Virus record (IMG/VR): IMGVR_UViG_3300027901_000001
Reading direction: 5' to 3' (one strand)
Length of the DNA stretch: 64,000 nucleotides
Origin: a virus
Shown here: one piece after another, positions 7,479-62,332 of the stretch
Position numbering within the stretch: position 1 is the first letter of the stretch
How the letters are laid out: the number at the start of each line of letters is the position of its first letter
Program-made: the position numbers and the translations under genes
Notes under the pieces: model-generated
Told to the model about the DNA's origin: nothing
What the model saw: the letters and a program-made list of their open reading frames with translations, nothing else
The model's database searches: none

Positions 7479-7495
7479 TCAGTAAGAATATCCTA

Positions 7496-8086: not shown

Positions 8087-8095
8087 GGCTCTCCC

Positions 8096-8896: not shown

Positions 8897-8991
8897 TCCC
8901 TGCCTCACCTCCGTTAAAGCAAAACGGGAAGGGCAGATGCACCTTCCCGTCTCGCGTACGCGCCCGCCCGCGTAGACGGGCTTCTGAGGGC

Positions 8992-10500: not shown

Positions 10501-10576
10501 TATTTTCCTCCAGTGAACACCGGCCTAATAATTGACCTACAGCAGCCGCCTTGGTTTTTGCAACTTTTCCGTACCG

Positions 10577-12211: not shown

Positions 12212-12212
12212 A

Positions 12213-12416
12213 TCACCACTTTCGCCAGCGCGTCCGAGAAGCGTAAGGGGTCCTGGCTATCAAACGCCCTGGCTTTTCTATAGGGGGTTCTCTCTTGGGT
12301 TTCACCTGCACCTTGGGAAGGTCATAGCCGATCAGCTTTTTCCTTCCACTTCTATAGGCAGTCCTCCGTTTTACCGCCCCTTCTCCGAGGAGCGCGCTGA
12401 GGGGAATAAGGATCAC
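12213..12416 (-). CDS. Small basic hypothetical protein
   Basis: 67 aa, 4-nt overlap with the upstream gene. Confidence 0.5.
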   Translation of the reverse strand: MILIPLSALLGEGAVKRRTAYRSGRKKLIGYDLPKVQVKPKREPPIEKPGRLIARTPYASRTRWRKW

Positions 12417-13267: not shown

Positions 13268-13277
13268 GGTTTTCCTC

Positions 13278-14210
13278 CTATGCTGCAACCGCCTCGAATC
13301 GTCGAGCGAGCTTTTCTGCGAAGGCCGCAGCTAGTGTCCATTCAAAAGCCTGGTCCGCGATCCCATCGTGAACCCTGGCCAAACATTTGACGCAACCATC
13401 CCCCGATACTGCCATAGCATCGTTGATAATCCCTAATACTCTGTCCAGGTCTTCGGTGTACCCGATGACGAATTCAACGAAGTCCGATGCCGTCATGCTA
13501 TCGCCGCCGCCGTCACGGAGACGATGGTTCTCGGTCACCTGACACGCTAACGCGGTCCGGCTCCGCATATTGGCGAACGCGGCCTTCAGCTTCTTGAGCG
13601 CCGCAATCACACTGTCACGATGATTCTCGGCTTGGTCCTCATCGACCCCATCCTTGAGGAGAGCTTCAAACTGGGGTTTCGGAACCTCCAACCGCACTAC
13701 TTCCGCCCCCAGAAATGACCGGATCTCATGCTTTTTCTCCTCAACAGCCTTGAACCAGTCCTCCTCGAACCAGGTCTGTTTGTTGAAAAGATCTTCCACA
13801 CCTTCGGCCGTCAGGCGCACTCCGGACTTCACCAACCGGTACAGCGCCCGCAGCCGCTCCTCCGGTACACGACCGGCCATTATCTCCTTGGTGGTTTGCA
13901 GGGCCTCGTCGCGGACCTGAGTACCCATCGTGTCGGCCTCATACACCGGCACCTCGATTTCCTGGATATCGGACAACACTACCTCGTTATCCTCATCCAG
14001 CGACCATTTCCCACGGAAAAATTCGCCTTCCTCATTGGCCACGATCATGTGATCGGGATAGGTGGCAATCGTCCGGATTGATTCGGCAGTGCCGTTGAAC
14101 AACTCAGCATTGGCCTCGACGGCCTCATCCACGGCCCCCACGGCGGTCTCGTAAGATCCGTCTACGAGCTTCGCCAGGAAGTCCGCATCCACTAATTTTT
14201 CCGTCGTCAT
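13278..14210 (-). CDS. Hypothetical head-module protein
   Basis: 310-aa ORF between portal and core protein. Confidence 0.65.
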   Translation of the reverse strand: MTTEKLVDADFLAKLVDGSYETAVGAVDEAVEANAELFNGTAESIRTIATYPDHMIVANEEGEFFRGKWSLDEDNEVVLSDIQEIEVPVYEADTMGTQVRDEALQTTKEIMAGRVPEERLRALYRLVKSGVRLTAEGVEDLFNKQTWFEEDWFKAVEEKKHEIRSFLGAEVVRLEVPKPQFEALLKDGVDEDQAENHRDSVIAALKKLKAAFANMRSRTALACQVTENHRLRDGGGDSMTASDFVEFVIGYTEDLDRVLGIINDAMAVSGDGCVKCLARVHDGIADQAFEWTLAAAFAEKLARRFEAVAA

Positions 14211-14309
14211 TTAGCCTCTTTTCCTGCTCGGCCAGAGATCTCGACAGATGAAACTCACGGTATTCCCCGCGAAAGTCCTATGTCAAGTTATTGGCCACGT
14301 AGGGTATCG

Positions 14310-16169
14310 TCACGCCATAGGACGCATTGTACCGCGAACATCCTTCAAAAGTCCCTGAATATGTCTGATACGTCTGGAGAGGTCGGGGTCGCCCTTCAGC
14401 GCCTCTATTAACCTCGCGTCAGCATGACGAGTCAGCCGCGCCTTCCGATCGAAGCTGCGCTCGATGTGATCCTGGTGCCTTTGCAGCATCCGACCAATAC
14501 GCTTTTCGAGCATCAGCATGTCCTTCGAGGTCACGAACTTCGACGCCATCTCCGGGCCACCGCCACCGCCGGGCTCAGCCTCAGCGCCTGCTTCGCCGCC
14601 GCCCCCAGCCTCACCTTCTGCCCCGGCTTCCGCACCTGCCGCACCCATTTCCGGCGGAGTCTGAGCCATAGTCAGCAACCGCTGAGATTCGGCTTCGATC
14701 TTGGCCTTCCGGATGGCGTCCTTATCCTTGTCCTTCATCAAATCTTCGGCCTCTTCCTCTGAATACTTGAACAGCGTGGTCAGGACCCATTTGGTGGACA
14801 AGAATTCGCCGGTCCGGGCCGCCAGGTCCGCCGTCGCGCTCATCACCTCTATCTTGGCCAGCTCCAGAATGGCGCTCGGCACGCTCATCTTCACGTCATA
14901 CTCATGCCGATTCACATCCGCCCCTTTCGCTATCAGATGGATGCGGCAAACCTTTCTCGTGCCGGTGCGCGTCTCGCGCTGAAGCCTCATCACTGTCCTG
15001 GCGAACCTGATATCCTCAGAGCTGAGGGCGCTCCGGCTCGATTCACCGCCGAATCCCATGTAGTTCTTCGGCACCTTGAGCGCGCTGACCAGGGCATCGC
15101 GGTGATACTCTACGGTATCCGTCTCGGAGTAGTCCGGCCCCTGGAGCACCTCGATCCTGGTGGAATCCTTGCCGCCCTTGCTGGGGATCCAAAAGTCCTC
15201 GTCATGGGCCAGCGGGTTATGGCGCATGTCCATCTTGCCCGTGGCCGGATTGATGAACTTCTTTTTCACAAACTGATTCTTAACCCGGTTGACATAGGCC
15301 AAACCGCGCTCGTTGTCGTACTCACCGATGTCCACGTAGAAAGCGTACCTGGCCGGGGCTCGGCTGAGCTTGTAAATAAGCAGCGCATCTTCCAGCAACA
15401 CTAGGCGTTTCCAGACCCAGCGCGCCGGATCAGCGACACCGTGACCATACGCAGAGTTCAGGTGCTTGCCACGCAACCTCCAGTGCACAACCTCCCAGTC
15501 CTCGAATACCGTCAGCACACCAGGGGGGCGTTTTTGTTCAGCCTCGGTGCCACGCTGAGCCGCCAGCTTATAGAAATCCTCGATAGAAAGATTGAACTCG
15601 CCCCGGATATCCTGAATAAATCCCAACAGACGACCCTGTGGGTCTTCCACACGCCGCATGGTAGGCGGCGGCAGAAAATTGAGACCGATCACCCCCTCCT
15701 CGGAAACGAGTATCTCCCCGAATCCGTTGCCGTATTTCCCTATGGTGCGTTCCAACCCCCAGATGTGCTCCTCAATAAGGACCCGCTTGTGGAGCATGTC
15801 GTTCAAATCGTTCTCAGTCGTTTTGTTATCCGATACGACCCAAATCGACTGACCGCGTTCCATGTCCGGCATCGCCGAATCGTCGGCATAGATATCGTAA
15901 GCCGTGCTGATGGCCCCGTATTCATCCATCTCCTCGTAATCGCTGTACCGGGCCTGGAGGCTTTGATCGATCCGGAGATGTTGAGCCAGGCTGTCGTATC
16001 CAAACTGGTTGGCCAAGCTGAAGGGCAGCCCAGCACGCTCGGCTGTTGGCGTACCACCACGTTGCAGCTCTGCGGCCTCGACCTCGGGAGCGCGGGCGAA
16101 GAAATGGCGGATGGCGTTCACAACGTCCGGGGAAAAACCCTCGGTGAGTCGGCTGAATGGGCTGGCCAC
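14310..16169 (-). CDS. Portal protein (T4 gp20-like)
   Basis: 'LEDALLIYKLSRAPARYAFYVDIG', 'EDFWIP.KGG..TRIEVLQG', 'ALKVPKNYM' and 'EDIRFARTVMRLQ'. Confidence 0.92.
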   Translation of the reverse strand: MASPFSRLTEGFSPDVVNAIRHFFARAPEVEAAELQRGGTPTAERAGLPFSLANQFGYDSLAQHLRIDQSLQARYSDYEEMDEYGAISTAYDIYADDSAMPDMERGQSIWVVSDNKTTENDLNDMLHKRVLIEEHIWGLERTIGKYGNGFGEILVSEEGVIGLNFLPPPTMRRVEDPQGRLLGFIQDIRGEFNLSIEDFYKLAAQRGTEAEQKRPPGVLTVFEDWEVVHWRLRGKHLNSAYGHGVADPARWVWKRLVLLEDALLIYKLSRAPARYAFYVDIGEYDNERGLAYVNRVKNQFVKKKFINPATGKMDMRHNPLAHDEDFWIPSKGGKDSTRIEVLQGPDYSETDTVEYHRDALVSALKVPKNYMGFGGESSRSALSSEDIRFARTVMRLQRETRTGTRKVCRIHLIAKGADVNRHEYDVKMSVPSAILELAKIEVMSATADLAARTGEFLSTKWVLTTLFKYSEEEAEDLMKDKDKDAIRKAKIEAESQRLLTMAQTPPEMGAAGAEAGAEGEAGGGGEAGAEAEPGGGGGPEMASKFVTSKDMLMLEKRIGRMLQRHQDHIERSFDRKARLTRHADARLIEALKGDPDLSRRIRHIQGLLKDVRGTMRPMA

Positions 16170-16171
16170 GC

Positions 16172-18277
16172 TTATCCTTTAATAAATGGCATCGGCTTCT
16201 TGCTGGGATCGTCCGGTCGTGTGCCCACAATACCCCCTTCAGAAGGGGTTTTGCTACTTTCCTGCCGAATCAGCGTCTGGCCGTCCGTTACCCAGGAGTG
16301 ATCCTCTACCTCTATTGTGTCCCTATCTGTCGGGCCTGCCTGAATCGGTACCGGCATACTCGGTGCTCGTTTGGTAAGATTGTACACCACCGCCGCCAAT
16401 GAATCGGCCACATCTTTCGTGCCAGGTTTGCCATCGGGACCAATCTTCGGGTGATCAATCTTAAAGCCCTTGCCGCGCAGCTTCGGCACGCGCTGGAGCT
16501 GCGTGATCTCCCGCTGGCACCAGGTGTGCAGGTGCATCCGCAGCCGTGACTCGTACATGGTGGTTTTTAATACATCGTATGGCTCCGTGGTCTTGTCCAC
16601 CGACAGCACCTCTGCCTCAATACCGCGCTTACGAAGCTGCTGAATGGCATCTGCCGACTGGTAAGAGTCCATCGTCACATACCGAATATTGAAGCCGTGC
16701 TCGGTAAACTGGTAAACGATGGCACGCACATCACTGAGCAGGATCTCGTCCCCCGGCGGCGGCACGACCCTCAGCACCAGGTCGGTCTCGATAAGGGGAG
16801 CCAGCTCGCTGTACTCTTCCATCGCTTTGTCGCGCCGTACCACTTCCGTCCAGCCGGAAATGTGGGCGATGGTCAGGCCGGTACAATCGCCACTCAACGA
16901 TGGGTCGATGTGCGCGTACCGGATGGCGTCAGGATGCCGGATCGGTCGCCAAGCCACCTCGGTATAACCACCAGGCAACCGCCGCGAAAAGCTCTTAGCA
17001 ATCTTTCCCCAGTGGATATCCAAAGGCGTGCTAGCCAGCCAGTTCTCCTGAATCTCTCCGGGGTCCGGACCGCCCATCGGACACACCAAAGTATCATCTG
17101 CGGCCTCGTACACCATCTCGGTACGGTGCATATACGGACTGACCGCCATCGTGGCATAGCCCGCGATATCCCGAATTGCGCCGTCCAGGTCACGCTCGAA
17201 ATCCCCCTTGTACTCCATCGGAACCTCAATAATTTGAAGTTCCAGCTTGCGAAATTTCTCCTCCTCCTCCGGATCGCCGCTCAGGATACGCGAATGGTGC
17301 TTCTCGTTGCCGACCACAACCTTGAAGGTCTCGGCCGTAAAGCTGCCCTTAGCCTTCACGTCCCAAGTGGCATACTCCCGGACGAAAAAGTGCGGGTCCG
17401 CTTGCTCCCGCGCCTGCTCGATCCGCTTCTCAACGAAAGCCGTCGGCCGCTCCTTTGAGGAGGCCAGCATCATCAGGCCAGGCAGTCGACCGACCTTCAG
17501 GAACCGCGACTTCATGCGCCGCAGAATCGACTTGTAGATAGCCTCGCCCTTGTCGGTGATGACCTCCCGGCCCATTCGGTCAATTTCCTTGACCGTACCC
17601 ATGAAGCTCGTCTCATCGATGAACCCAGCAAAGGCGTTCATGCCGATGATGGCCGATGAACCGGTCGAGCCCGCGACCACCATGATCTGCTTCGGGAACC
17701 GAATCTCCAGTAGGCTTGGAGCCGCTTTGGAGGGAAACTTCTCCTTAAAATACCGGGAATGGGTAATCTTTCCCAGCAGCTCGTTGACGGGCACACGCCG
17801 GGCCACGCGCTCGGTAACTGACAGCATGGCCAGGTAAATATGGGAGCCCGGAGCGATGCCATACGCGCTCTGCGGGTCCCGCAAACAGGACATCTGGTAC
17901 AGAACATAGCTCATCGCCGTGGTGGCAAAGAACGTCTTTCCCCAGCCCAGACTGCCACCCAGGGCCGCCTCGTGGTAGTCGCCCTCGAACAGCTCCACCA
18001 GGTCGTCCTTGAGCTGATCCCAAAGCGAACCGCCAGTTTCCCCCAAAAAGAACGGATCCGTCAGGTAGGTCCGGATGTCGGCCGGGGCCGTCTCATACTC
18101 AATGTTGGCTATCTGCTCATAGTCGTCCTGCTCGCCCGCTTGGAGCTGTTTGTACATCTCCATCAGGGCCTTGCGTTCCGATTCGGGTAATTGGCCAATA
18201 TCGCCCGCCAGAACCTGAACTTCCTCCTCGGGAGTCCGAACAGACCGTGGCCGCCCCTCCTTGTCGAGTATCGGCAC
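16172..18277 (-). CDS. terL: Terminase large subunit
   Basis: Walker A 'GGSLGWGKT', Walker B 'GFIDETSF', nuclease 'HIDPSLSGD' and 'KDVADSLA'; GTG start; adjacent to portal. Confidence 0.92.
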   Translation of the reverse strand: MPILDKEGRPRSVRTPEEEVQVLAGDIGQLPESERKALMEMYKQLQAGEQDDYEQIANIEYETAPADIRTYLTDPFFLGETGGSLWDQLKDDLVELFEGDYHEAALGGSLGWGKTFFATTAMSYVLYQMSCLRDPQSAYGIAPGSHIYLAMLSVTERVARRVPVNELLGKITHSRYFKEKFPSKAAPSLLEIRFPKQIMVVAGSTGSSAIIGMNAFAGFIDETSFMGTVKEIDRMGREVITDKGEAIYKSILRRMKSRFLKVGRLPGLMMLASSKERPTAFVEKRIEQAREQADPHFFVREYATWDVKAKGSFTAETFKVVVGNEKHHSRILSGDPEEEEKFRKLELQIIEVPMEYKGDFERDLDGAIRDIAGYATMAVSPYMHRTEMVYEAADDTLVCPMGGPDPGEIQENWLASTPLDIHWGKIAKSFSRRLPGGYTEVAWRPIRHPDAIRYAHIDPSLSGDCTGLTIAHISGWTEVVRRDKAMEEYSELAPLIETDLVLRVVPPPGDEILLSDVRAIVYQFTEHGFNIRYVTMDSYQSADAIQQLRKRGIEAEVLSVDKTTEPYDVLKTTMYESRLRMHLHTWCQREITQLQRVPKLRGKGFKIDHPKIGPDGKPGTKDVADSLAAVVYNLTKRAPSMPVPIQAGPTDRDTIEVEDHSWVTDGQTLIRQESSKTPSEGGIVGTRPDDPSKKPMPFIKG

Positions 18278-18285
18278 GCCAACTC

Positions 18286-19011
18286 CTATTCTTCAGAAGC
18301 AGGCCGTGGAAGGGGCAACGTCTCCGAGGGCAACGGGAATCTCGCCTTACCGAATCTGGTCATCCTCTCCAACAGAGACATGATCCGGTGCCGGGACTCT
18401 GGATTGCTCAACACCTCCATCGTCTCCTGACTGTAATTCTTGATGCTCAGGCTCATCTCGATGCCTTCCGGCTTCCCCTGGTTCAGCTTTGCCTGAGCTT
18501 GGATACGCTTCCAGAGCGTCTCATCCATGCTATCGAGCGCTCGCGTGGTAATATCGCTGAAGGCTCCGCTCAGGGCCTCCAGCTCCAGCATCCGGTCACA
18601 CCGATCTCGCTTCACCAGGTAGGACGCCTCCAGCTCCAACATATCCTTAACACCGCCTTCGGCGCGTTTGTAAAGGGACCTGGCTACTCTGCCAGGAGTC
18701 GCTGGCAATCGCCGGTATTTAATCATCGCCCGCAGGTCATCATCTTCGCCCCAGTCAGTGGACTGGGGCGCTCCCCACCAACCGTCTGTCTCTTGCTTCT
18801 GACGCCGCCGGACTGTCAGGGCATTGGCCAAGCTCTCAGGATTGATGTCCGTCAGCTCGCCTTTATCGTGCTGGATAAATTGCGCCACGATCGAAGAAGG
18901 AACGTTCTCGATGAGCATCTCATCGATCTCGCCCAGGAACGGTAACGCCTCAACGAGCTTCCCGACCTTTTGCTTGGCGCGTGGCCGTGCTGGTCGCTTG
19001 GCTGTGGCCAT
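18286..19011 (-). CDS. Candidate terminase small subunit
   Basis: Helical 241-aa protein immediately upstream of terL; assignment by position. Confidence 0.45.
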   Translation of the reverse strand: MATAKRPARPRAKQKVGKLVEALPFLGEIDEMLIENVPSSIVAQFIQHDKGELTDINPESLANALTVRRRQKQETDGWWGAPQSTDWGEDDDLRAMIKYRRLPATPGRVARSLYKRAEGGVKDMLELEASYLVKRDRCDRMLELEALSGAFSDITTRALDSMDETLWKRIQAQAKLNQGKPEGIEMSLSIKNYSQETMEVLSNPESRHRIMSLLERMTRFGKARFPLPSETLPLPRPASEE

Positions 19012-52244: not shown

Positions 52245-52378
52245 AGGGAAGCGGGCGTTACCCGCCTGCTGGTCCCTGTCGTGGTGCAGTGGTGGAACCG
52301 ACAGGACTCGAACCTGCAACCTTCTGGCTGCCAGCCAGACGCTCTCCCGAGTTGAGCTACGGACCCAAACACTTTCAT
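52229..52378 (-). promoter_or_regulatory. Thr-sensing leader ORF reading through tRNA-Ala(GGC)
   Basis: ATG 52378 with SD; 50 codons; spacer codons ACC ACG ACA GGG ACC ... ACG; stops inside tRNA-Thr(CGU). Confidence 0.65.
52290..52366 (-). tRNA. trnA: tRNA-Ala(GGC)
   Basis: Cloverleaf; loop CTGGCAG; G3:U70; CCA. Confidence 0.93.
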
Positions 52379-52866: not shown

Positions 52867-52916
52867 ACAAGTCCGCCCGAGCTTCTACAGAGTGGGTCTG
52901 GTTTGCGTTCGTACAT
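52867..52916 (-). promoter_or_regulatory. Cys leader (MYERKPDPLCRSSGGL...)
   Basis: SD GAGGAG plus ATG; one TGT codon; reads into tRNA-Cys. Confidence 0.5.
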
Positions 52917-52927
52917 GAGAGTCTCCT

Positions 52928-53000
52928 CGGCAGGCCAGGTGGGAATCGAACCCACTACAGTCGGATTTGGAATCCGACCGGCTACCTCAGCCTCTGACCT
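52928..53000 (-). tRNA. trnW: tRNA-Trp(CCA)
   Basis: Cloverleaf; loop TTCCAAA. Confidence 0.88.
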
Positions 53001-54204: not shown

Positions 54205-54516
54205 TCACAGCCTCCGTTTCTTCCGTTTCAGGGTGTACCGGGCCTCCACGGGCCGGTCCTTCACCCACTCAATGTACCGCCAAACCTTGGGGCTCGCCAA
54301 GAGCTTCTTCAGAGTGTTGTACTGGGTGCGCAGCTCCTGGTTCGTGAACATGAGGTGAATCTGGTCGCCACACTGATGGCAGACCTTGATCCCCTCCTTA
54401 GTACGCCGCCGCCGCTTGCCCGGCTCTAGGTGATGGAACACCAGATGGTCCGTCTCCCTGGAGCAGAGCGCGCAGCACAGCTTGTGCTTATTTTCCGGAC
54501 AGGCAGAGGGACGCAT
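54205..54516 (-). CDS. Small HNH-like endonuclease
   Basis: CALC...HHL...CHQC..QIH. Confidence 0.6.
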   Translation of the reverse strand: MRPSACPENKHKLCCALCSRETDHLVFHHLEPGKRRRRTKEGIKVCHQCGDQIHLMFTNQELRTQYNTLKKLLASPKVWRYIEWVKDRPVEARYTLKRKKRRL

Positions 54517-55450
54517 ACAGCACTTCGTCCCCCTCACCAACGAACTGGCCCGACAGCAACCTGCTGGCCACCGTCCGCAGGGAGAAGCCGCCCATCTTTT
54601 CGTCCGGCCGGGCAGCCGCCTCAAGCTGGAGTGCCTGGGTTTCGCCAACCACGGTGCTGGTCGTCTCCTGGTCCTTCTCGGTTGCCTCCTTCAGAGCCGC
54701 CTGGAGCCCCTCCAGGGACCGTTCTCCCACGGTAAGGGCCGACCTAGTAGCCGGAGGCAGCGGGTTGCCCTTGGCCACCTGGAGCGACAGGGAGCCGTAG
54801 CACACCCGAATCAGAGGCACCCACAGACGCTCCCAGAAGGCCACGGAGGGAGCGCGCTCGACGCCCACCACCTTGCCGCCTACCAGGATGATGCTGCCCA
54901 CCTGCCGGGGCACCAGCTCGAACTCGGCCACGAACTCATCGAGCTGCTTCTTGAAGTGCCGCAAGAAGTCCGCGATGTTGCCGCTGCCGGACAGGCCCAC
55001 GGACCGCTTGAAAGCGCGGATGAAGGTCCACAGCCGATCGTACTTATCCTCCAGCCGAGTCGCCAGCGCCTGAGCACGCAGCGCCGCCGGAAGGATGATC
55101 ATGCTGCCCTGCTGATCACGGATAAGCCCGCTCTGGGTCTCCTGGATGCAGCACGCCCGGTCCATGTCCCGCTCGCTCTTGGGAGCCATGAGCGCGCCCC
55201 CGCACACCGCGTGGTCCTGAGCCGCGTCCTTCACGCACCAGCCCGCGCCGGGCGACACAATAGAAGGCCGGTCGGCCGTGTTCCGAAGGTGCACGGAACC
55301 GTACTCGTGGGTCGAGGCGTGGAAATCCGGCGGAGCGAACCGATCGTCGTCTTCGTCGCTCAGCAGCGGAATCACCTCCATCTGTCCGACGCTCTGGCGA
55401 GCACCGGTCCTGGTTCCTTTAAGGATCTGTTCTACGGTCAGTGTAGGCAT
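54488..55450 (-). CDS. ARPP/DUF6569-like domain protein
   Basis: 'QSVGQMEVIPL', 'AAQDHAV', 'ACCIQETQSG'; coupled to the vWA gene; family call from memory of the motif pattern. Confidence 0.5.
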   Translation of the reverse strand: MPTLTVEQILKGTRTGARQSVGQMEVIPLLSDEDDDRFAPPDFHASTHEYGSVHLRNTADRPSIVSPGAGWCVKDAAQDHAVCGGALMAPKSERDMDRACCIQETQSGLIRDQQGSMIILPAALRAQALATRLEDKYDRLWTFIRAFKRSVGLSGSGNIADFLRHFKKQLDEFVAEFELVPRQVGSIILVGGKVVGVERAPSVAFWERLWVPLIRVCYGSLSLQVAKGNPLPPATRSALTVGERSLEGLQAALKEATEKDQETTSTVVGETQALQLEAAARPDEKMGGFSLRTVASRLLSGQFVGEGDEVLYASLCLSGK

Positions 55451-57036
55451 TACACACCTCCTCTCCCGAGCACCGGGAGCGCCCTGCCGATCAGGACGTT
55501 GATACCGCGCACCGGATCCGCCTCCAGCATCCCCCGGATGAACGTCAGCCCGATGGACGCCGGATCCTTCACCGGCATGGTGGAAGCCAGCTTGGGAGCC
55601 AGCTCCCGGACACTTCCAACCTCAGCCGCGAAAACCGGGTTGATGTGGTAGACCGGCGTTTCGATGCCGATCTCGCGTGCCTGGCCGAGCACCTCTGCAA
55701 ACCGTCCGGCCGGTCGGTTCTCATACCCATCGCTGAGCACAAAGATAACATCCGGCCCATCGGCCAGCAGCTCCAGGAGTCCCGAGGCCAGCTCGGTATC
55801 TCCGGACGGCCGGGGAGACTCGGCCCCCAGATTACCTCCACGGGTAACCTCAAAGGCGCGCTTCGTGGCTGTCCGCCTCAGCATATCGCGCATGGCCAGC
55901 ACGGCCGCCATCGGCCGCAGCGGCTGGGTCTTGTCCCCGGCCATCGACTTCGAGGCATCCACCAGGATGCCAACGTTCTCGTAGCTCACCGGGAACGCCT
56001 TGGCCGCCTTCCGAGCCTTGGCCAGAAGAGCCTCCTCGATCTCTCCAGTCATGCCCATCTCGAAGGCGTACAGGTAAAGCCGGACCGCATCGTAGTCCTT
56101 CGGATCCATCTCGACCTTGACCCCAGCCTTCTTCGCCTGACGCTGCACCGTCATCTTCTGCTTCTTGCTGAGAGTGCCTTCCTTCGCAGCGTGCTTCAGC
56201 ACCTCATCCTTGGAGACCTCCTGGTGGTAGGTGCTCCGCAGGCCCTCCAGAACCTCCGGCGGCAGTCGACTGCCTTCCGCCAGGTCCTTCTTGGCCGCCT
56301 CCCGAGCCTTGAGCAGGGGGGTCTTCCAGGTCCGCGTGCCACCGAGCACGAAGCACACGTACTCGTACACGTCGGACGGCTTGCCCTGGTGGTACTTGTC
56401 GATGCTGTCGCGGAGAATCTTCTTCTCCTTGTCCGTCCAGGTCCGGGCGCTCCGGCTCAGGATCGTCCGGATCACCGTGGTGCGCTTCTGGCCCCAGGCG
56501 TGGGTCAGGGCCTCGCTCATCTTGCTGCGGTACTTCACGGCCCACCAGTCCAACTTCCTGGAGCTGAGGATGGTCCGCAGCATCAGCTTCCGGGTCCGGG
56601 CGTTGTTGGCCTTCGGCGTCTCCTGGGTGCCCACGCGGAATCCCTGGAAGAGCTTGAACACCATCTGCGGAGGCATCTCGCGCATGTAGTGGTAGAGCAC
56701 CTCGCGCTCCATCTTGGCGTCGAGCAGGCCATCGGTCTGGCTGTTACGCGGGGTACCGAGCAGATTCTTGGTGCCGATCTGCACGGCGCGCTCCATCACG
56801 CCCGGCAGCACCAACAGCAAGGCGTACAGGTCACGGTCGAGCTTCATCATGGCCTGGTGCGCAGCCAGCTCCGCCTTCTGCTGCTCCTGGCGCGTGTTGT
56901 AGTGGGTAGCCCGGCCAAACGAGGTCGAGGCCGTGTCCAGGAAATGGCACACGATCTCCCCCGCCTTCTTCGCAGTCACACGCTGCGGAGGCTTCCACCT
57001 GATTTCATCGCTGTCCCTGGTAACGATGTCCGGCAT
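55450..57036 (-). CDS. TROVE/Ro60-like helical domain plus vWA (MIDAS) protein
   Basis: 528 aa; MIDAS 'VDASKSM' and 'VLSDGYEN'; helical N-terminal two-thirds with 'PPEVLEGL'; size and architecture as in Ro60. Confidence 0.65.
   Translation of the reverse strand: MPDIVTRDSDEIRWKPPQRVTAKKAGEIVCHFLDTASTSFGRATHYNTRQEQQKAELAAHQAMMKLDRDLYALLLVLPGVMERAVQIGTKNLLGTPRNSQTDGLLDAKMEREVLYHYMREMPPQMVFKLFQGFRVGTQETPKANNARTRKLMLRTILSSRKLDWWAVKYRSKMSEALTHAWGQKRTTVIRTILSRSARTWTDKEKKILRDSIDKYHQGKPSDVYEYVCFVLGGTRTWKTPLLKAREAAKKDLAEGSRLPPEVLEGLRSTYHQEVSKDEVLKHAAKEGTLSKKQKMTVQRQAKKAGVKVEMDPKDYDAVRLYLYAFEMGMTGEIEEALLAKARKAAKAFPVSYENVGILVDASKSMAGDKTQPLRPMAAVLAMRDMLRRTATKRAFEVTRGGNLGAESPRPSGDTELASGLLELLADGPDVIFVLSDGYENRPAGRFAEVLGQAREIGIETPVYHINPVFAAEVGSVRELAPKLASTMPVKDPASIGLTFIRGMLEADPVRGINVLIGRALPVLGRGGV
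56261..56274. repeat. 14-bp palindrome, copy 5
   Basis: Exact; inside the TROVE-like gene. Confidence 0.8.
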
Positions 57037-57057
57037 GGTTGTACCTCCAGAAAAATA

Positions 57058-57189
57058 CCGGGGGTAAGTTGCTCGTCATTTGTCTCGCGCCTTTACCAGT
57101 TAGGCCACGCCCCCGCTTGGTGGGGGCGGCAGGACTCGAACCTGCAATCTCGGGATTCCATATCCGAAAATGACGCGACAGTTCCCCGG
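57058..57189 (-). ncRNA. Y-RNA-like RNA with a circularly permuted tRNA-like domain
   Basis: Outer stem CCGGGG/CCCCGG plus GCGUCAUUU/AAAUGACG encloses, in order, a T-arm (GCAGG-TTCGAGT-CCTGC), a loop-closed acceptor stem (CGCCCCC-ACCAAGC-GGGGGCG) and a D-arm (GCC-TAACTGGTAAA-GGC); directly upstream of the TROVE-like gene. Confidence 0.75.
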
Positions 57190-57285: not shown

Positions 57286-57442
57286 TGTTCGTAGCGACCG
57301 GCCTGAGACAGGGGGGTTGTCAGGTTTTTTGAAAGAAAACAGGAATCGGACCTGTACCTTCTGTTGGTAAAACAGACGTGCTACCGTTGCACTATCTCTT
57401 CCGAAACTAGCAACCTAGTTCTCAGGTCCGTCGCTACGAACA
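57286..57442 (-). ncRNA. Long-stem RNA enclosing a degenerate tRNA-like cloverleaf
   Basis: TGTTCGTAGCGAC/GTCGCTACGAACA and CCTGAGA/TCTCAGG stems; the inner 57331..57402 has D-, anticodon-like (TCTGT/ACAGA) and T-like arms with a poor acceptor stem. Confidence 0.6.
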
Positions 57443-57527: not shown

Positions 57528-57613
57528 TGGCGGAAGGCAGAGGTCCCGACCCTCAGACCCGGAGGCCCCAACGGCTTAGCAGGCCGCGCCTGTCCCCGAC
57601 AGGTTTACCTTCC
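57528..57613 (-). tRNA. trnS: tRNA-Ser(GCU)
   Basis: Long variable arm; loop CTGCTAA; CCA. Confidence 0.87.
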
Positions 57614-57662
57614 CAAGGTTCCTGCTCGGGCGCGTACTGCTCTCTGTTGCTCTGCCTCTCAT
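57614..57662 (-). promoter_or_regulatory. Ser(GCU) leader (MRGRATESSTRPSRNL...)
   Basis: AGC AGT ... AGC and no TCN codons. Confidence 0.7.
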
Positions 57663-57671
57663 CGCTTTCCT

Positions 57672-57745
57672 CGGTGGGTCTGAAGGGAATCGAACCCCTG
57701 TAGTCCGGTTAAGAGCCGGATGCTCGGCCACTGAGCGACAGACCC
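57672..57745 (-). tRNA. trnK: tRNA-Lys(CUU)
   Basis: Cloverleaf; loop CTCTTAA. Confidence 0.92.
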
Positions 57746-57809
57746 TCGCGTGCGCGCACCTCCGCGTGCGCGTGCGCTTGAGCCTGGTCTGTCGATTTAC
57801 CGAAATCAT
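57746..57809 (-). promoter_or_regulatory. Lys(CUU) leader (MISVNRQTRLKR...)
   Basis: SD AGGAG; single Lys codon is AAG; CGACAGACC pairs with the tRNA 5' strand. Confidence 0.65.
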
Positions 57810-57820
57810 CGTGAAACTCC

Positions 57821-57895
57821 TGGTGGGCGCGGTGGGAATCGAACCCACGGATTCCGGGTTAAAAGCCCGGTACCCTGCCATCGGGTGCCACGCCC
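57821..57895 (-). tRNA. trnK: tRNA-Lys(UUU)
   Basis: Cloverleaf; loop CTTTTAA; CCA. Confidence 0.9.
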
Positions 57896-57933
57896 TCGAT
57901 GGGACGCGGCGATCGTTTCAGTCTCCTATTCAT
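57896..57933 (-). promoter_or_regulatory. Lys(UUU) leader (MNRRLKRSPRPI...)
   Basis: Single Lys codon is AAA; GCCGCGTCC pairs with the tRNA 5' GGGCGTGGC. Confidence 0.62.
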
Positions 57934-58008
57934 AGCTCCAGGGGCAGGCGTCGAACCCGCATAGTCTCGGTTAACAGCCGAGCGCCTTACCAGTTAGGCT
58001 ACCCTGGA
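57933..58008 (-). tRNA. trnN: tRNA-Asn(GUU)
   Basis: Cloverleaf; loop CTGTTAA. Confidence 0.92.
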
Positions 58009-58053
58009 AGAACACCGCTGGGGCCGACCGTTGGCCGACCCGGTGGTATTCAT
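58009..58053 (-). promoter_or_regulatory. Asn leader (MNTTGSANGRPQRCS...)
   Basis: AAT and AAC codons. Confidence 0.55.
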
Positions 58054-58058
58054 TCCAG

Positions 58059-58134
58059 TGGCAGGAGTGGAAGGACTCGAACCCTCATCACCGGGGTAGA
58101 AGCCCGGTGCTCTCATCCGTTGAGCTACACTCCC
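58059..58134 (-). tRNA. trnR: tRNA-Arg(UCU)
   Basis: Cloverleaf; loop CTTCTAC; CCA. Confidence 0.92.
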
Positions 58135-58136
58135 TC

Positions 58137-58211
58137 GGGCGGGAGCGGCGGGAGTCGAACCCGCACAGACCAGCTTAGGAGGCCGGTACCCATCCATTAG
58201 GCGTCGCTCCC
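58137..58211 (-). tRNA. trnR: tRNA-Arg(CCU)
   Basis: Cloverleaf; loop CTCCTAA. Confidence 0.88.
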
Positions 58212-58260
58212 AGATGCTGTCCTGGAATCTTCGCCTGTATCTGTGCTCGATCCGTTCCAT
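58212..58260 (-). promoter_or_regulatory. Arg(CCU/UCU) leader (MERIEHRYRRRFQDSI...)
   Basis: CGG AGA AGG CGA AGA; contains both AGG and AGA. Confidence 0.72.
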
Positions 58261-58271
58261 CTTCTTCTTCC

Positions 58272-58348
58272 TGGTAGGCCCGGTCGGATTTGAACCGACG
58301 ACCACGCCCTTATCGGGGGCGTGCTCTACCTATCTGAGCTACGAGCCC
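58272..58348 (-). tRNA. trnI: tRNA-Ile(GAU)
   Basis: Cloverleaf; loop CCGATAA (C33); CCA. Confidence 0.9.
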
Positions 58349-58398
58349 ATCACCCTTGCGCGCCGGTCTCAACCGGCCCGGTAATGAGCACAGCCTGT

Positions 58399-58911
58399 TT
58401 ACGCAACACTCGCATACGTTCTCCTGTTCACAATGTAAGATACGGTGGTCTTTGGAACCCCATACTTCTCCATCAGCTCTTTATACGACATGCCCCGATC
58501 CCGATCTTTTCTCAGGTTTCGCACCTCATCTTCGGAAACCTTGCTTCTAACCCTCCCTGCCTTCCGAGCATCCAAGGTCCTCTTTCTTTTGTCCTTATCT
58601 AACGTGTTCTGAGAATGCGTCCCGATTGCGATGTTCCCTTTGCTATTGTTCAGTGGGTTTCCGTCCAAGTGTCGCGCCTCCACTCCTTCAGCAAACGCAT
58701 CTTCTCCGAACCACTGATAGGCCGCCAACAGATGGACGGCGACATTATATTCTACCCCTTTGTCCTTTATCTTAAATGACAAGTACCCTTTTCTGTCGTC
58801 GTAAAGACTCCTTTTCTTGCCTGACGCTGCTGTTACCTCTCCTGCCTCTGAAACCCTGTATCCTTTACGAAAAGCAATCAACACTGCGGTAATCTTTTTT
58901 GACCGCCTCAT
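58399..58911 (-). CDS. HNH homing endonuclease with C-terminal HTH, inserted in the tRNA array
   Basis: 'VHLLAAY', 'ARHLDGNPLNNSKGNI...THSQN'; AT-rich. Confidence 0.85.
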   Translation of the reverse strand: MRRSKKITAVLIAFRKGYRVSEAGEVTAASGKKRSLYDDRKGYLSFKIKDKGVEYNVAVHLLAAYQWFGEDAFAEGVEARHLDGNPLNNSKGNIAIGTHSQNTLDKDKRKRTLDARKAGRVRSKVSEDEVRNLRKDRDRGMSYKELMEKYGVPKTTVSYIVNRRTYASVA

Positions 58912-58912
58912 T

Positions 58913-58991
58913 TTGCGCTCCGGGGCAGGATCGAACTGCCGACACCTCGGGCTTCAACCGAGTGCTCTACCAACGCCTGAGCTACCGGAGC
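58913..58991 (-). tRNA. trnF: tRNA-Phe(GAA)
   Basis: Cloverleaf; loop TTGAAGC. Confidence 0.9.
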
Positions 58992-59048
58992 AGAATCGCT
59001 ACGGCAGCCCGTAAAGCCCTCATCGTATGTCCTCTTCCTGTCCATCAT
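58992..59048 (-). promoter_or_regulatory. Phe leader (MMDRKRTYDEGFTGCRSDS...)
   Basis: TTT followed by GGCTGCCGTAGC, which pairs 11/12 with the tRNA 5' end; start uncertain. Confidence 0.58.
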
Positions 59049-59053
59049 CTCCT

Positions 59054-59127
59054 CGGTGCGGGCAAAGGGAATCGAACCCATTTCTCCAGGGTGGAAACCT
59101 GGCATCTCACCGTTGGACCGTACCCGC
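59054..59127 (-). tRNA. trnG: tRNA-Gly(UCC)
   Basis: Cloverleaf; loop TTTCCAC. Confidence 0.9.
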
Positions 59128-59165
59128 ATGGCCAGCAGCAGGCTCTCCCTGCACGGTCCCTCCTC
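59128..59165 (-). promoter_or_regulatory. Gly(UCC) leader
   Basis: In-frame GGA GGA GGG ACC GTG CAG GGA; GGACCGTGC pairs with tRNA GTACGGTCC. Confidence 0.62.
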
Positions 59166-59243
59166 CGGTCCACCCGGTCGGACTCGAACCGATCATCGCT
59201 CGCTTATAGGGCGAGTGCTCTACGCAGATTGAGCTACGGGTGG
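59166..59243 (-). tRNA. trnI: tRNA-Ile(UAU), rare anticodon
   Basis: Cloverleaf; stem CTCGC/GCGAG, loop CCTATAA; A73. Confidence 0.85.
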
Positions 59244-59298
59244 TCACCGTAACGGGCGCGACCCGTGCGCCTATCTGCCTATCCGCTCGCCTTGCCAT
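59244..59298 (-). promoter_or_regulatory. Ile(UAU) leader (MARRADRQIGARV...)
   Basis: The only Ile codon is ATA; SD-like GGAGG upstream. Confidence 0.62.
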
Positions 59299-59539
59299 GC
59301 CTCAGTCCCTCCATGTACCACTGGTATTCGTGACCTCTGACCGTTCCTCCGCACTTCTTACAACGATACTGCGCCCTGAAATGTAATCCGTCGTTTTCCT
59401 TTTCAAATTCGTGCGGCCCTTCACACTCCCTGAGCTTCTTGTGGTTGGCCTTCACCTCTTCCCAGATTTGATTGATTTCCTTTTTCTTCAGCCCCGATAC
59501 GTTCGCTAGCGCGTCTAGTGCCTTGTCAACCATGCTCAC
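59279..59539 (-). CDS. Small Zn-finger hypothetical protein
   Basis: C...H.F...Y.CKKCG. Confidence 0.6.
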   Translation of the reverse strand: MSMVDKALDALANVSGLKKKEINQIWEEVKANHKKLRECEGPHEFEKENDGLHFRAQYRCKKCGGTVRGHEYQWYMEGLRHGKASG

Positions 59540-59540
59540 C

Positions 59541-59629
59541 TGGTGCGCCGGGAGGGAATCGAACCCCCATAGCCCGTCAGGACACCTGGGTTACAGCCAG
59601 GCCCCCGTACCAATTCGAGGAACCGACGC
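59541..59629 (-). tRNA. trnY: tRNA-Tyr(GUA)
   Basis: Long variable arm; loop CTGTAAC; CCA. Confidence 0.9.
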
Positions 59630-59691
59630 ATACCGGTTTCCGCCGCCTCTCGCGGCCCGGTATAGCGCCTGTCTGTCCTGCACCCTGTCAT
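59630..59691 (-). promoter_or_regulatory. Tyr leader (MTGCRTDRRYTGPREAAETG...)
   Basis: SD AGGAG; one TAT codon; alternative hairpins. Confidence 0.5.
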
Positions 59692-59721
59692 CGTTTCCAT
59701 CTCCTGTTCCGCAACAAGCAA

Positions 59722-59879
59722 GTAAACCGAGGCAAGGGCTCTCGTTGGTTTTGGCTTTTGAGTTACCCCGGCGATAAAAAAGGCTTGCGCCTAGCGCCGG
59801 GGGCTGGACTCGAACCAGCAACGTTCAGTCTATCAAACTGATACTCTTCCTATAACAACGCGATAGTTCCTCGGTTTAC
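59722..59879 (-). ncRNA. Second Y-RNA-like RNA with permuted T-arm/acceptor domain
   Basis: 11-bp outer stem GTAAACCGAGG/CCTCGGTTTAC, GAACU, CGTTG/CAACG; T-arm GCTGG-TTCGAGT-CCAGC followed by the CCCCGGCG/CGCCGGGG stem. Confidence 0.68.
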
Positions 59880-59907
59880 CTCCTTGCTGCGAGCTGAAAC
59901 AAACAGG

Positions 59908-60034
59908 TGATCTGAGACAGGTTGAACGTCAGTTTTGGTAAAGGGGGTCTGCACGACCTACACGGACTTATGCGTGTCCGTCATTGGTTTTCAGCCAATG
60001 GCATTCCTAGACTGGCGGTACAGTTCTCAGATCA
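59908..60034 (-). ncRNA. GAACU-motif long-stem RNA, paralogue of 57286..57442
   Basis: TGATCTGAGA/TCTCAGATCA stem; shares CTGAGAACT ... CTGAC ... CCTGTCTCAG with 57286..57442. Confidence 0.55.
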
Positions 60035-60058
60035 ACTCTTTCTTCCAACACCTCCTTT

Positions 60059-60136
60059 TGGGCTGGCCGACGGGACTCGAACCCGCAAAAAACACGGCCC
60101 ACAACCGTGTGCCTCGTCCGGCTGGCTCCGACCAGC
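60059..60136 (-). tRNA. trnH: tRNA-His(GUG)
   Basis: 8-bp acceptor stem with G-1:C73; loop TTGTGGG; CCA. Confidence 0.9.
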
Positions 60137-60174
60137 ATAATATGGCCGGAGCCCGTATGTCTTTCGCCCTTCAT
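60137..60174 (-). promoter_or_regulatory. His leader (MKGERHTGSGHI...)
   Basis: Two CAT codons flank GGCTCCGGCCA, which pairs 11 bp with tRNA TGGTCGGAGCC. Confidence 0.75.
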
Positions 60175-60184
60175 CTTCCTTCTC

Positions 60185-60258
60185 CAGCGCCCCGTACGGG
60201 ACTCGAACCCGTCTCATTGGATCGACAGTCCAACTGCATCCCCGATGCACAACGAGGC
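60185..60258 (-). tRNA. trnD: tRNA-Asp(GUC)
   Basis: Cloverleaf; loop CTGTCGA; G73. Confidence 0.87.
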
Positions 60259-60296
60259 ATCAGATCGTCAGCCGGTTCTGTATCTATCCAGGTCAT
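60259..60296 (-). promoter_or_regulatory. Asp leader (MTWIDTEPADDL...)
   Basis: SD AGGAG; GAT, GAC, GAT in 12 codons. Confidence 0.68.
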
Positions 60297-60307
60297 CGTC
60301 TTCTCCT

Positions 60308-60386
60308 TGGTAGCGGGAGCGGGATTTGAACCCGCGATCTTCGGGTTATGAGCCCAACGGGGACGACCAGACTCCCCTATCCCGCA
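60308..60386 (-). tRNA. trnfM: Initiator tRNA-fMet(CAU)
   Basis: GGG/CCC anticodon stem, 1:72 mismatch, loop CTCATAA; CCA. Confidence 0.9.
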
Positions 60387-60394
60387 GCAATCCT

Positions 60395-60471
60395 TGGTCC
60401 GGGCGGTGGGATTTGAACCCACGACTACGTGGTCCCAAGCCACGTGGGCTACCAGCCTGCCCTACACCCGG
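60395..60471 (-). tRNA. trnP: tRNA-Pro(UGG)
   Basis: C1:G72, A73; loop CTTGGGA; CCA. Confidence 0.92.
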
Positions 60472-60537
60472 TCGTGTTAACGGATCCGTGCCCCGAACGC
60501 ACGGTCGACCGGGTTGTGGTGGGTACCAGTAAAACAT
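60472..60537 (-). promoter_or_regulatory. Pro leader (MFYWYPPQPGRP...)
   Basis: SD AGGAGG; CCA CCA, 5 Pro in 22 codons; ACCCGGTCG pairs with CGACCGGGT at the tRNA 5' end. Confidence 0.75.
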
Positions 60538-60757
60538 CTTGCCTTCCTCCTTCTAGCCCACCAGGAACGCAAGATTTCGTGGCGGGCTCTTTATGACCCG
60601 CCTGGATATGGACGGGTCAGAAGCGAAAAATATCACTCCCGTTATGCCTATACATCGGCTTGGGTATGTCTTTTCTGCTTGGCATCTCCGTCTCTTAGGT
60701 GCCCCTCGGGACTCGAACTAATCCGAGCCCGAAGGCCCCGCTCTTTTGAAGGTGATC

Positions 60758-61093
60758 CTATCCGGAAAGATTGTCAAGCGCCCCCCTCAACAAAAGAGGC
60801 AGATTGCTGACGATTCTTCTTGCCGACGATCCGAGTGCCAGTGCAGTGGCTTCATCACCGACATCCGGCTCACGAAAAAGCGACGCCGGGCAGCCGTTCG
60901 CCTGGTCCCGGAGCGCCAGCAGCGCCTTCTCGTCCGGCACCTGGAGGAGCACCAGGTTGTTCGATCCTTCGTACCAGGCGCGGTCCTCTTCGGGGTGCTC
61001 GGCCGAAAAAAGCCGCAGGGCATGGCACGCCTGGGCCGCCTGGAGACCCGGCTTCAGGTCAGCCCGGACCACGATATAGAGCTTTGCATCAAT
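60758..61093 (-). CDS. Peptidyl-tRNA hydrolase, PTH2-like (start codon ambiguous)
   Basis: 'KLYIVVRADLKPGLQAAQACHA', 'LVLLQV' and 'FREPD.G...TALA'; the in-frame region upstream of GTG 61072 has no ATG. Confidence 0.75.
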   Translation of the reverse strand: MDAKLYIVVRADLKPGLQAAQACHALRLFSAEHPEEDRAWYEGSNNLVLLQVPDEKALLALRDQANGCPASLFREPDVGDEATALALGSSARRIVSNLPLLLRGALDNLSG

Positions 61094-61159
61094 GGGACTG
61101 TTTCATTTCAACACCTCTTTGGTTTGATGGCTAAATTAAGCCTTTCTCATGGCTTAAAT

Positions 61160-61245
61160 TGGTCAGCCGGGAGGACTCGAACCCCATACTCCTGACCCGT
61201 ACCGCGAATCGGGGTCAGTTGCTCTACCAGTTGAGCTACCGGCCG
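61160..61245 (-). ncRNA. tRNA-like RNA (Pro-like body) with a 17-nt region in place of the 7-nt anticodon loop
   Basis: Normal acceptor, D and T arms plus CCA; CTGAC-[CCCGATTCGCGGTACGG]-GTCAG. Confidence 0.75.
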
Positions 61246-61355
61246 ATAAGTCATGTGGGAGGAGCCATCCACTCGGGATCTACCGCGAATCAACCCCAAG
61301 TTGCCCAGGACCCTTCCGGGCTGGCAGTCCCTACTCAGTATCCTGGACACCCACA

Positions 61356-61442
61356 TGGCACGCGGGGATGGACTCGAACCACCGACCTCCGAGCAAGCTC
61401 GGTGCTCTTCCTGGAGCAAAGCTCTCTCTGAGCTACCCGCGT
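61356..61442 (-). ncRNA. tRNA-like RNA with a CUUG tetraloop instead of an anticodon loop and an enlarged D-loop
   Basis: ACGCGGG/CCCGCGT acceptor, G73, CCA; CCGAG-CTTG-CTCGG; 22-nt D-loop containing a GAGC-TTT-GCTC hairpin. Confidence 0.75.
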
Positions 61443-61574
61443 ATGGCGCGTCCCCTGCCCGTTGCTCATCTTCCGTGGAGAGGATGGACTGGACGACAGG
61501 GGGCGCAAAAAAGGCCGGTTTGTTTTCCGCCCTGATAATAATGAGAGCGGGGGACAAAACCGGCTCGGAAAACC

Positions 61575-61652
61575 CGGCGCGCAGGGTGGGGGTCGAACCC
61601 ACAACCTCCAAGGTCATTACCCTTGGTGCTCGACCAACCGAGCTGCCCGCGC
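61575..61652 (-). ncRNA. tRNA-like RNA with a 9-nt anticodon loop (or 6-bp stem with an AAU loop)
   Basis: CCAAG-[GGTAATGAC]-CTTGG; canonical D and T arms. Confidence 0.72.
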
Positions 61653-61753: not shown

Positions 61754-62332
61754 TTAATGAAGACTCTTCATAATATCTCCTGAAATCCTATAAGAGTCCC
61801 CTCGAACAATCTTACCGATGGTGGCAGGACATACCGAAAATTTATCGGCCAAACTCCTAAACGAATGCCCTCCCCCTCTATACAGAGAACGCACACTTTT
61901 CGCCTCGGCAAAAGTCAATTTTCTCTGCTTAGAAACCGCGTGCAGAGAATGCCTCACCCTCTCTTCTCTGGGAATATCGAAAGAGTTGTCCGACTTGGAA
62001 CCGAGAACAATGTTCTCTCTTGAATTGTTACGCTTATCCCCGTCCAGGTGCCTTACTTCTATCCCCTCACCAAGAGCCATTTCCCCAAACCAGTAATAAG
62101 CCGCCAACCGATGGACCATCACCACGCCCCGGTTGCCGTCCCCATTCGTCCCCACACTAAAATGGAGGTACCCATTGGTACCCTCCTGGAGCTTCAGCCT
62201 CTTGTGGTTCCTCGGAGAAACTACTTCTCCCCCTTCGTTTACCACGTATCCCAAAAAGGCCGCCAACCTTACTCGACCATTACCCGTCGTGCTATCAAGT
62301 GGAGGCGTCTTCATAATCTCTACGATAGCCAT
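61754..62332 (-). CDS. HNH homing endonuclease with C-terminal HTH
   Basis: 'VHRLAAY', 'VRHLDGDKRNNSRENI...SKSDN'; paralogue of 58399..58911. Confidence 0.85.
   Translation of the reverse strand: MAIVEIMKTPPLDSTTGNGRVRLAAFLGYVVNEGGEVVSPRNHKRLKLQEGTNGYLHFSVGTNGDGNRGVVMVHRLAAYYWFGEMALGEGIEVRHLDGDKRNNSRENIVLGSKSDNSFDIPREERVRHSLHAVSKQRKLTFAEAKSVRSLYRGGGHSFRSLADKFSVCPATIGKIVRGDSYRISGDIMKSLH

Follow-up and report, generated by a model that had tools for sequence, protein, structure and literature searches.

The virus record IMGVR_UViG_3300027901_000001 contains, within the 64,000-nucleotide (nt) stretch analysed here (the window), an array of 15 transfer RNA (tRNA) genes, most of which follow a short leader open reading frame (ORF) that presents a codon read by the downstream tRNA at the edge of an RNA segment complementary to it. 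We favour, with a probability of roughly 0.65, ribosome-gated maturation of the individual tRNAs, with negative feedback, on one long precursor: each tRNA of the array would probably mature solely when ribosomes stall for lack of that same tRNA.

Leader frames and their sensor codons

The window, which holds about 40 tRNA genes in four units, belongs to a complete phage genome of 191,623 bp (58% GC) that has direct terminal repeats and a T4-like capsid and portal. The tRNA genes all lie on the minus strand, as do all window features described below. The array runs Pro, Met, Asp, His, Tyr, Ile(UAU), Gly(UCC), Phe, Ile(GAU), Arg(CCU), Arg(UCU), Asn, Lys(UUU), Lys(CUU) and Ser(GCU), with spacers of 38-75 nt between most tRNAs. 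The original prediction, which took the leaders for sensors of single isoacceptors, addressed its 3' part (57528-59298). The codons, their frame and their conservation, together with the compensatory arm changes and the lack of terminators presented below, can be read directly from the sequence.

The upstream units (59536-60537) consist of the Pro (CCA), Asp (GAT), His (CAT) and Tyr (TAT) leaders with their arms and tRNAs; in the Asp leader, a rare, non-cognate ATA directly precedes GAT in 4/4 phages (60296-60280). The Ile-UAU leader (ATG 59298) carries the predicted ATA in frame at 59274-59272 and opens a 63-residue relay ORF (59107-59298) that crosses tRNA-Ile(UAU) (59169-59243) without a stop, presents GGA GGA GGG (59166-59158) as the Gly-UCC sensor and ends within tRNA-Gly(UCC) (59057-59127), a gene detected by Rfam and missed by ARAGORN at default settings. 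The full glycine run of the original prediction, GGA GGA GGG ... GGA (59166-59146), is real and in frame, and is joined by a GGC (59133) that the prediction had left out. It has a Shine-Dalgarno (SD) look, and we considered whether it merely serves a following GTG start; this was rejected, as the GTG is not conserved and the run lies in the frame of the Ile-UAU ORF in four phages (the window, L003, L007 and L008), which share the read-through from Ile-UAU to Gly.

Further downstream, the Phe leader ORF (58908-59048; sensor TTT at 59015-59013, with an anti-acceptor arm) crosses tRNA-Phe(GAA) (58916-58991), and its stop overlaps the start of an HNH gene lodged inside the array (58399-58911; a second HNH gene lies at 61754-62332). 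The end of the inserted gene in turn provides the SD of the Ile-GAU leader (58350-58415; sensor ATT at 58385-58383), which is followed by tRNA-Ile(GAU) (58275-58348), so that the relay survives the HNH insertion. An 88-residue relay ORF (57994-58260; ATG 58260) presents the Arg sensor AGA-x-AGG-CGA-AGA (58242-58228), crosses tRNA-Arg(CCU) (58140-58211) and tRNA-Arg(UCU) (58062-58134) and reaches the Asn sensor AAT (58050-58048); the predicted AGG and two AGA codons are thus in frame, in the company of a CGG (58254) and the CGA (58233) that had gone unmentioned.

Both Lys leaders and the Ser leader read as described in the original prediction. AAA (57918-57916) is the sole Lys codon of the Lys-UUU leader (57859-57933; ATG 57933) and, itself unpaired, immediately precedes a 9-bp arm complementary to the start of tRNA-Lys(UUU) (57824-57895). 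AAG (57779-57777), the sole Lys codon of the Lys-CUU leader (ATG 57809), sits in a long helix that also takes up the 5' strand of tRNA-Lys(CUU) (57675-57745; z=-3.4). This leader begins a 77-residue relay ORF (57576-57809) that crosses tRNA-Lys(CUU) into the Ser leader, which has its own ATG (57662), AGC and AGT (57641-57636) and a further AGC in frame, no TCN codon, and tRNA-Ser(GCU) (57528-57613) downstream. Some leader ORFs hence cross a tRNA into the next sensor (Ile-UAU to Gly, Arg to Asn, Lys-CUU to Ser), and others end on the next start.

Codon match against chance

Leader frames were set by a rule that used the SD and ATG and took no account of codon identity, and codons were sought 15-60 nt upstream of each tRNA (-60 to -15), limits that were set after seeing the data. 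Each of the 13 single-tRNA leaders (13/13) includes a codon read by its own tRNA (3.5 on average when labels are permuted, p≤5e-6), as opposed to 5/13 and 4/13 in the other two frames, a specificity for the SD/ATG frame which argues that the leaders were selected as reading frames. Once the amino acid is fixed, the matching isoacceptor box accounts for 19 of 23 codons across the eight informative leaders of the window, where about 10 are expected (p≈1e-4, with either genome usage or the usage of non-cognate leaders as the null). Taken singly, just the Ser (p≈0.02) and Gly (p≈0.05) leaders stand out; the Lys and Ile leaders offer one informative codon each, and the Arg leader is not enriched over the local null (3/5, p=0.42), nor is Arg over the purine-rich local background (10/18 versus 46%). 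Most sensors are minor codons of the phage (AAA 24%, ATA 13%, TTT 39%, CCA 13%, GGA 16%), yet AAG, its major Lys codon, is the sensor before Lys-CUU.

The notion that the spacers are untranslated palindromic leftovers with coincidental codons draws on their shortness, their purine richness and the frequency of AGA/AGG in all leaders (46%). We consider it very improbable in view of the restriction of the codon match to the SD/ATG frame, the frames that stay open across entire tRNA genes and are kept in relatives, and the coverage of all 15 codon classes by the leader at the array head described below.

Conservation of the sensors in related phages

Four relatives with the same array (L002, L003, L007 and L008; 63-87% protein identity) were recovered through a neighbouring vWA-like protein, and L004, L005, L134 and L135 proved to be duplicates; as the five phages compared (the window and four relatives) are related, counts across them do not represent independent events. 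The sensor codon is identical in 13/13 orthologous groups, as against 61/438 (14%) invariant residues in two neighbouring genes, where invariant Lys is all-AAA at 0/24 positions, Ile all-ATA at 0/14, Arg all-AGR at 0/36, Gly all-GGA at 1/46 and Ser all-AGY at 4/16. AAA is kept before Lys-UUU in 5/5 phages (its third base unpaired in 4/5), AAG before Lys-CUU in 5/5, AGC-AGT before Ser-GCU in 5/5, and ATA before tRNA-Ile(UAU), ATT before Ile-GAU and GGA before Gly-UCC in 4/4 each. The tRNA-Ile(UAU) orthologues themselves have UAU in two phages and CAU, presumably lysidine-modified, in two (L007 and L008), and the leader retains ATA in all four. Furthermore, leaders in front of the other tRNA blocks of the genome use the complementary boxes, with CGN alone before Arg-ACG/CCG, GGT before Gly-GCC and TCN, plus one AGC in the window, before Ser-NGA. 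The claim that the sensors report on individual isoacceptors is therefore borne out as far as codon-box tuning goes, through the box match, its conservation and the complementary block leaders; its extension to nucleases rather than starvation is taken up below.

The tuning is not uniform. The Arg leader retains CGA in 4/4 phages, and the Lys pair is the weakest case for isoacceptor discrimination: tRNA-Lys(UUU) normally reads AAG as well, the G of AAG is paired, and the two codons are mixed in relatives, with AAG also present in the Lys-UUU leaders of L003 and L007, AAA also in the Lys-CUU leader of L002, and both together ahead of Lys-CUU in the distant phage L136.

Beyond these relatives, similarity of GenBank phages to the array is confined to the tRNA bodies, searches of viral, metagenome and genome collections with short DNA patterns returned just chance matches or copies of known contigs, and homologues of an 84-residue gene yielded no further array DNA. 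Of the sequencing runs listed with this DNA, the best was a marine sediment metagenome, a possible source of the phage, and no RNA run was among them; contigs from the runs added a single low-depth variant of the Asn leader, in which the ATG is apparently lost and AAT kept. In the more distant capsid relatives G002, G006 and G008 the tRNA arrays are mostly tightly packed; G002 has a terminator at the head of its array and keeps a single Lys-UUU leader, in which AAA is present. The distant phage L136 shows the same layout ahead of Asp, His and Phe: within 7100-18400, its array has per-tRNA leaders, including an Asp-rich one before two Asp tRNAs and His and Phe leaders similar to those of the window, and is adjoined by RtcB.

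A master leader at the head of the array

Upstream of tRNA-Pro and after a TTGACA promoter-like site lies a 22-codon ORF (60617-60685), the master leader, in which 19/21 codons belong to the array set, compared with 40% genome-wide (p≤5e-6). It covers 15/15 array codon classes, including AAA and AAG, AGA and AGG, and ATA and ATT, alongside AGC/AGT, GGG, CCA, ATG, TAT, CAT, AAC, GAT and TTT, and contains no codon for Ala, Val, Leu, Thr, Glu, Gln, Cys or Trp, the amino acids served by other blocks alone. The master leader is conserved in L003 and L007 and is the best single evidence that the design lists isoacceptors.

Behind it, alternative hairpins 1:2, 2:3 and 3:4 (60530-60620) form without a U tract, and the SD-like site of the first sensor ORF (60552-60546) is predicted to be hidden when a ribosome occupies the master-leader stop. 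With the ribosome at the stop, footprint folding gives this SD an unpaired probability of 0.00-0.12, whereas stalls further upstream give about 0.5 in L007 and variable values of 0.02-0.8 in L003; the effect is clear in L007, variable in L003 and weak in the window. The master leader is probably an OR gate for the whole array, acting through access to the ribosome-binding site of the first sensor.

Could the isoacceptor match be a by-product of codon rarity and RNA pairing, with the sensors simply being the slowest or most shortage-sensitive codons and control exerted per amino acid? Most sensors are indeed the minor codon of the phage, and within the RNA arm AAG, AGG, ATT and TAT each have a paired third base, whereas the third base is unpaired for AAA in 4/5 phages and for ATA in 2/4. 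Moreover, exact codons are equally frozen in families with a single isoacceptor (TTT, TAT, CAT, AAT and GAT, all U-ending), so that the choice of slow wobble or shortage-sensitive codons, or RNA pairing, explains part of the pattern. As a full account it is nevertheless unlikely: the major Lys codon AAG precedes Lys-CUU, paired isoacceptors differ in codon (AAA/AAG, ATA/ATT), the block leaders use complementary boxes, and the master leader includes both members of each isoacceptor pair.

RNA arms and a predicted fold switch

A distance of 22-49 nt separates each sensor from the tRNA downstream of it, and the sensor borders the segment complementary to the tRNA 5' strand. Folding of 55 leader-tRNA pairs gives a predicted acceptor-stem probability of 0.96 for the tRNA alone and 0.08 with its native leader (85% of pairs below 0.1), compared with 0.47 with the leader of another tRNA or a shuffled leader and 0.18 with the orthologous leader from another phage. 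When a ribosome footprint is masked at the sensor, the acceptor stem exceeds 0.5 in 78% of pairs, as against 29% with the footprint six codons earlier. This fold switch is modelled, and mutually exclusive helices chosen by ribosome position are predicted by folding and supported by covariation. Duplex energy between leader and tRNA alone ranked the native partner first in just 15/55 pairs.

The arms carry compensatory pairs in His (3/11), Phe (2/10), Ser (3/11) and Lys-UUU (3 pairs), and arm cells are paired in 83-91% of cases versus 14-53% when the arm is slid. That the arm tracks changes in the tRNA 5' strand by two-sided substitutions is thus a suggestive, not a conclusive, reading of the alignments.

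Intrinsic terminators were found in none of the spacers, which have no U tracts, and the region as a whole has 15 terminator-like sites where 11.5 are expected. Control could in principle still be transcriptional, through a Rho-dependent or U-less termination linked to translation of the leader, with the arms serving as pause or terminator hairpins; a leader peptide with a terminator does stand ahead of the tRNA block of G002, and a hidden first SD could produce polarity. We regard this as quite improbable, as the spacers are free of U tracts, the arms comprise tRNA bases and covary with them, and all sensors would have to stall simultaneously for transcription to pass 14 serial terminators. 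Since serial terminators could not regulate the genes singly and the spacers contain none, we prefer maturation from a single precursor.

Several observations weigh against this ribosome-gated maturation model. Two genes, tRNA-Met and tRNA-Arg(UCU), have no leader of their own. Random leaders also lower acceptor pairing to 0.47, equilibrium folding being noisy, and about one in five pairs stays closed at the sensor in the model; the window Lys-UUU and Ser pairs open 1-2 codons after the sensor, and Ile-GAU never opens in two phages. Many operon-internal tRNAs likewise score low with their native upstream sequence; these had been tried as a folding control and were dropped as a poor one, because neighbouring tRNA halves pair with them. 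The covariation comes from four related sequences, and its score is reached by 11-43/500 shuffles. In the window itself the SD switch behind the master leader is weak (0.54). Finally, the sensors are single codons, at which a ribosome dwells for a short time relative to the codon runs of classical attenuators.

A model of ribosome-gated tRNA maturation

In the model we propose, the array would be transcribed as a single long RNA, on which each leader holds its own tRNA locked until a ribosome stalls there. The leader arm would pair with the 5' acceptor/D strand of the tRNA, preventing the cloverleaf and hence cleavage by RNase P; masking of a pre-tRNA leader is known to block RNase P in vivo in E. 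coli (PMC7897497). A ribosome translating the leader would meet, at the arm edge, the sensor codon read by the locked tRNA. With the tRNA plentiful, the ribosome would pass, often translating across the tRNA gene as far as the following sensor, and the lock would re-form; with the tRNA scarce, the ribosome would dwell and cover the arm, allowing the tRNA to fold and be processed. The newly matured tRNA would then relieve the stall, a negative feedback for each tRNA species which would explain the isoacceptor-matched codons. We infer translation of the leaders in vivo, the gating of RNase P and the direction of control.

The trigger of such a system would be any shortage of functional tRNA, of which cleavage of host tRNAs is a plausible cause, though not one singled out by the data. 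Sequence alone cannot separate nuclease attack, host tRNA decay, codon demand and starvation. The original prediction that the sensors answer to anticodon nucleases rather than starvation is not supported: any feedback loop needs a codon read by its product, so the isoacceptor match does not single out nucleases, and amino-acid attenuators, which respond to starvation, also use biased isoacceptor codons through selective charging (PMC1183508). Tentatively, we envisage a natural two-tier tRNA homeostat that serves the greater part of the codon table, in which the master leader would sense any decoding failure and the locks would mature just the missing isoacceptor, so that the phage could replenish precisely the tRNA lost to a host anticodon nuclease.

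We hold it to be rather unlikely that the array is dedicated to making good the loss of single isoacceptors to host anticodon nucleases and does not respond to amino-acid starvation. Per-tRNA, box-matched sensors would suit such a role, extra tRNA would logically not remedy a lack of amino acid, and RtcB adjoins the array in a distant relative. Phage tRNAs are known to rescue infection from defences that cut tRNA, namely PARIS (PMC11464382) and retron-Eco7 and PrrC (PMC11555353), and an anticodon-loop hypothesis for phage tRNAs has been put forward in the same vein (PMC10264068). On the other hand, uncharged and destroyed tRNA look the same to a ribosome, and a bias among isoacceptor codons is a typical trait of starvation attenuators (PMC1183508). 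Single-isoacceptor families have equally frozen codons, the Arg leader keeps its CGA, and the two Lys tRNAs overlap through wobble, with their sensor codons mixed in relatives. RtcB was not found in the genome of the window's phage, and by eye the anticodon loops of both Lys tRNAs and Ser-GCU are ordinary; both Ile tRNAs have C33, and Phe and Asp have unusual bases at 37-38, also by eye.

Other leaders and neighbouring features

Leaders with TTGACA-like promoter sites upstream precede the Trp/Cys/Gly/Val/Ala/Thr (53146-53024), Leu/Ser (53932-53855) and Glu/Gln/Arg (51956-51897) blocks; all three are conserved in relatives and have no U-tract terminators. The Trp and Glu block leaders also pair with the 5' strand of the first tRNA, and equilibrium folding of the Leu block leader showed no switch. 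Inside the block operon (52869-52928 and 52245-52289), tRNA-Cys has its own TGT sensor and arm and tRNA-Thr an ACG ACA sensor and arm, the latter reached by an ORF crossing tRNA-Ala; both are kept in L002, L003 and L007.

Between His and Tyr, a tRNA-like remnant and a structured stretch (59793-60058) occur that are absent from L003 and L007. A tRNA-shaped gene downstream of the array (57330-57402), enclosed by a conserved outer helix, has an A-rich acceptor stem and the anticodon TAC in the window and TGC, GAT and TGG in relatives, and is probably a tRNA mimic, not a decoder. It is followed by a Y-RNA-like element (57055-57189; weak YrlA match, E=0.002, below the cut-off) and, downstream of that, by a 528-residue vWA-like gene and an ARPP-1 gene (54488-57036), with homologues that include proteins of Minicystis and of a deltaproteobacterial metagenome-assembled genome. 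On the other side, three tRNA-shaped genes with abnormal anticodon arms stand ahead of a Pth2-like gene (60758-61652), and comparable pairs are present in other phages. None of four neighbouring proteins matched in PADLOC.

Comparison with known systems

T-box riboswitches sense one isoacceptor through a specifier codon and bind the uncharged tRNA directly, without a ribosome; the array has in common with them the codon-specific sensing of a single isoacceptor and would use a ribosome instead. No T-box matched the array in Rfam up to E=1, and its spacers are 38-75 nt. In translational attenuation (ermC, cat-86), the position of a leader ribosome decides whether a downstream SD is hidden. The master leader is predicted to hide an SD likewise, most clearly in L007, whereas ermC and cat-86 respond to antibiotics via nascent-peptide arrest and control a protein gene. 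Leader-peptide transcription attenuation is also known from pheST, with its leader peptide pheM. The attenuators of amino-acid operons (trpL, hisL, pheL, thrL, leuL and ilvL; PMC1183508) share with the array a short ORF with cognate codons, biased synonymous choice and, on the predicted folds, a stalled ribosome that selects between exclusive helices, and their multivalent leaders resemble the master leader. Unlike these, the array has no terminator or antiterminator: what is controlled is a tRNA, whose own acceptor stem would be the competing helix, and a single-codon sensor recurs once per gene along the transcript, the product reading the sensor codon directly. As no intrinsic terminator (a GC hairpin with a U tract) serves as output in the spacers or behind the master leader, we do not class the array as a leader-peptide attenuator, despite the similar working.

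A synthetic RNase P riboswitch (PMC7897497) shares with our model a sequestering hairpin at the pre-tRNA 5' end that gates processing, but is engineered, ligand-driven and masks the leader alone, where the array would be natural and ribosome-driven, with the acceptor stem itself predicted to be invaded; according to that report, of 2021, no earlier case of a switch governing access of RNase P had been demonstrated. The T5 tRNA-Lys acting against PARIS (PMC11464382), the tRNA-Tyr acting against retron-Eco7 (PMC11555353) and the tRNAs considered in PMC10264068 have in common with the array that phage-encoded tRNAs could stand in for those of the host. They act via resistance or a strong promoter, and the accessible portions of these papers describe no demand-sensing control. 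The literature searched, largely without subscription papers, contained no description of tRNA genes regulated by leader peptides.

Implications

The contributions of the present locus are the 13 putative serial locks, the isoacceptor pairs placed side by side, the master leader and the conservation controls. They bear on the long-standing question of why large phages carry near-complete tRNA sets. Should the model be true, the leader parts, at 40-75 nt, would be portable as reporters or as modules for on-demand tRNA supply, and the array would provide a natural example in which the position of a ribosome governs the processing of tRNA, as opposed to transcription or translation. The phage would then report which tRNA runs short during infection, each leader acting as a sensor of one isoacceptor, and codon compensation, starvation and nuclease defence would become distinguishable by which tRNA matures.

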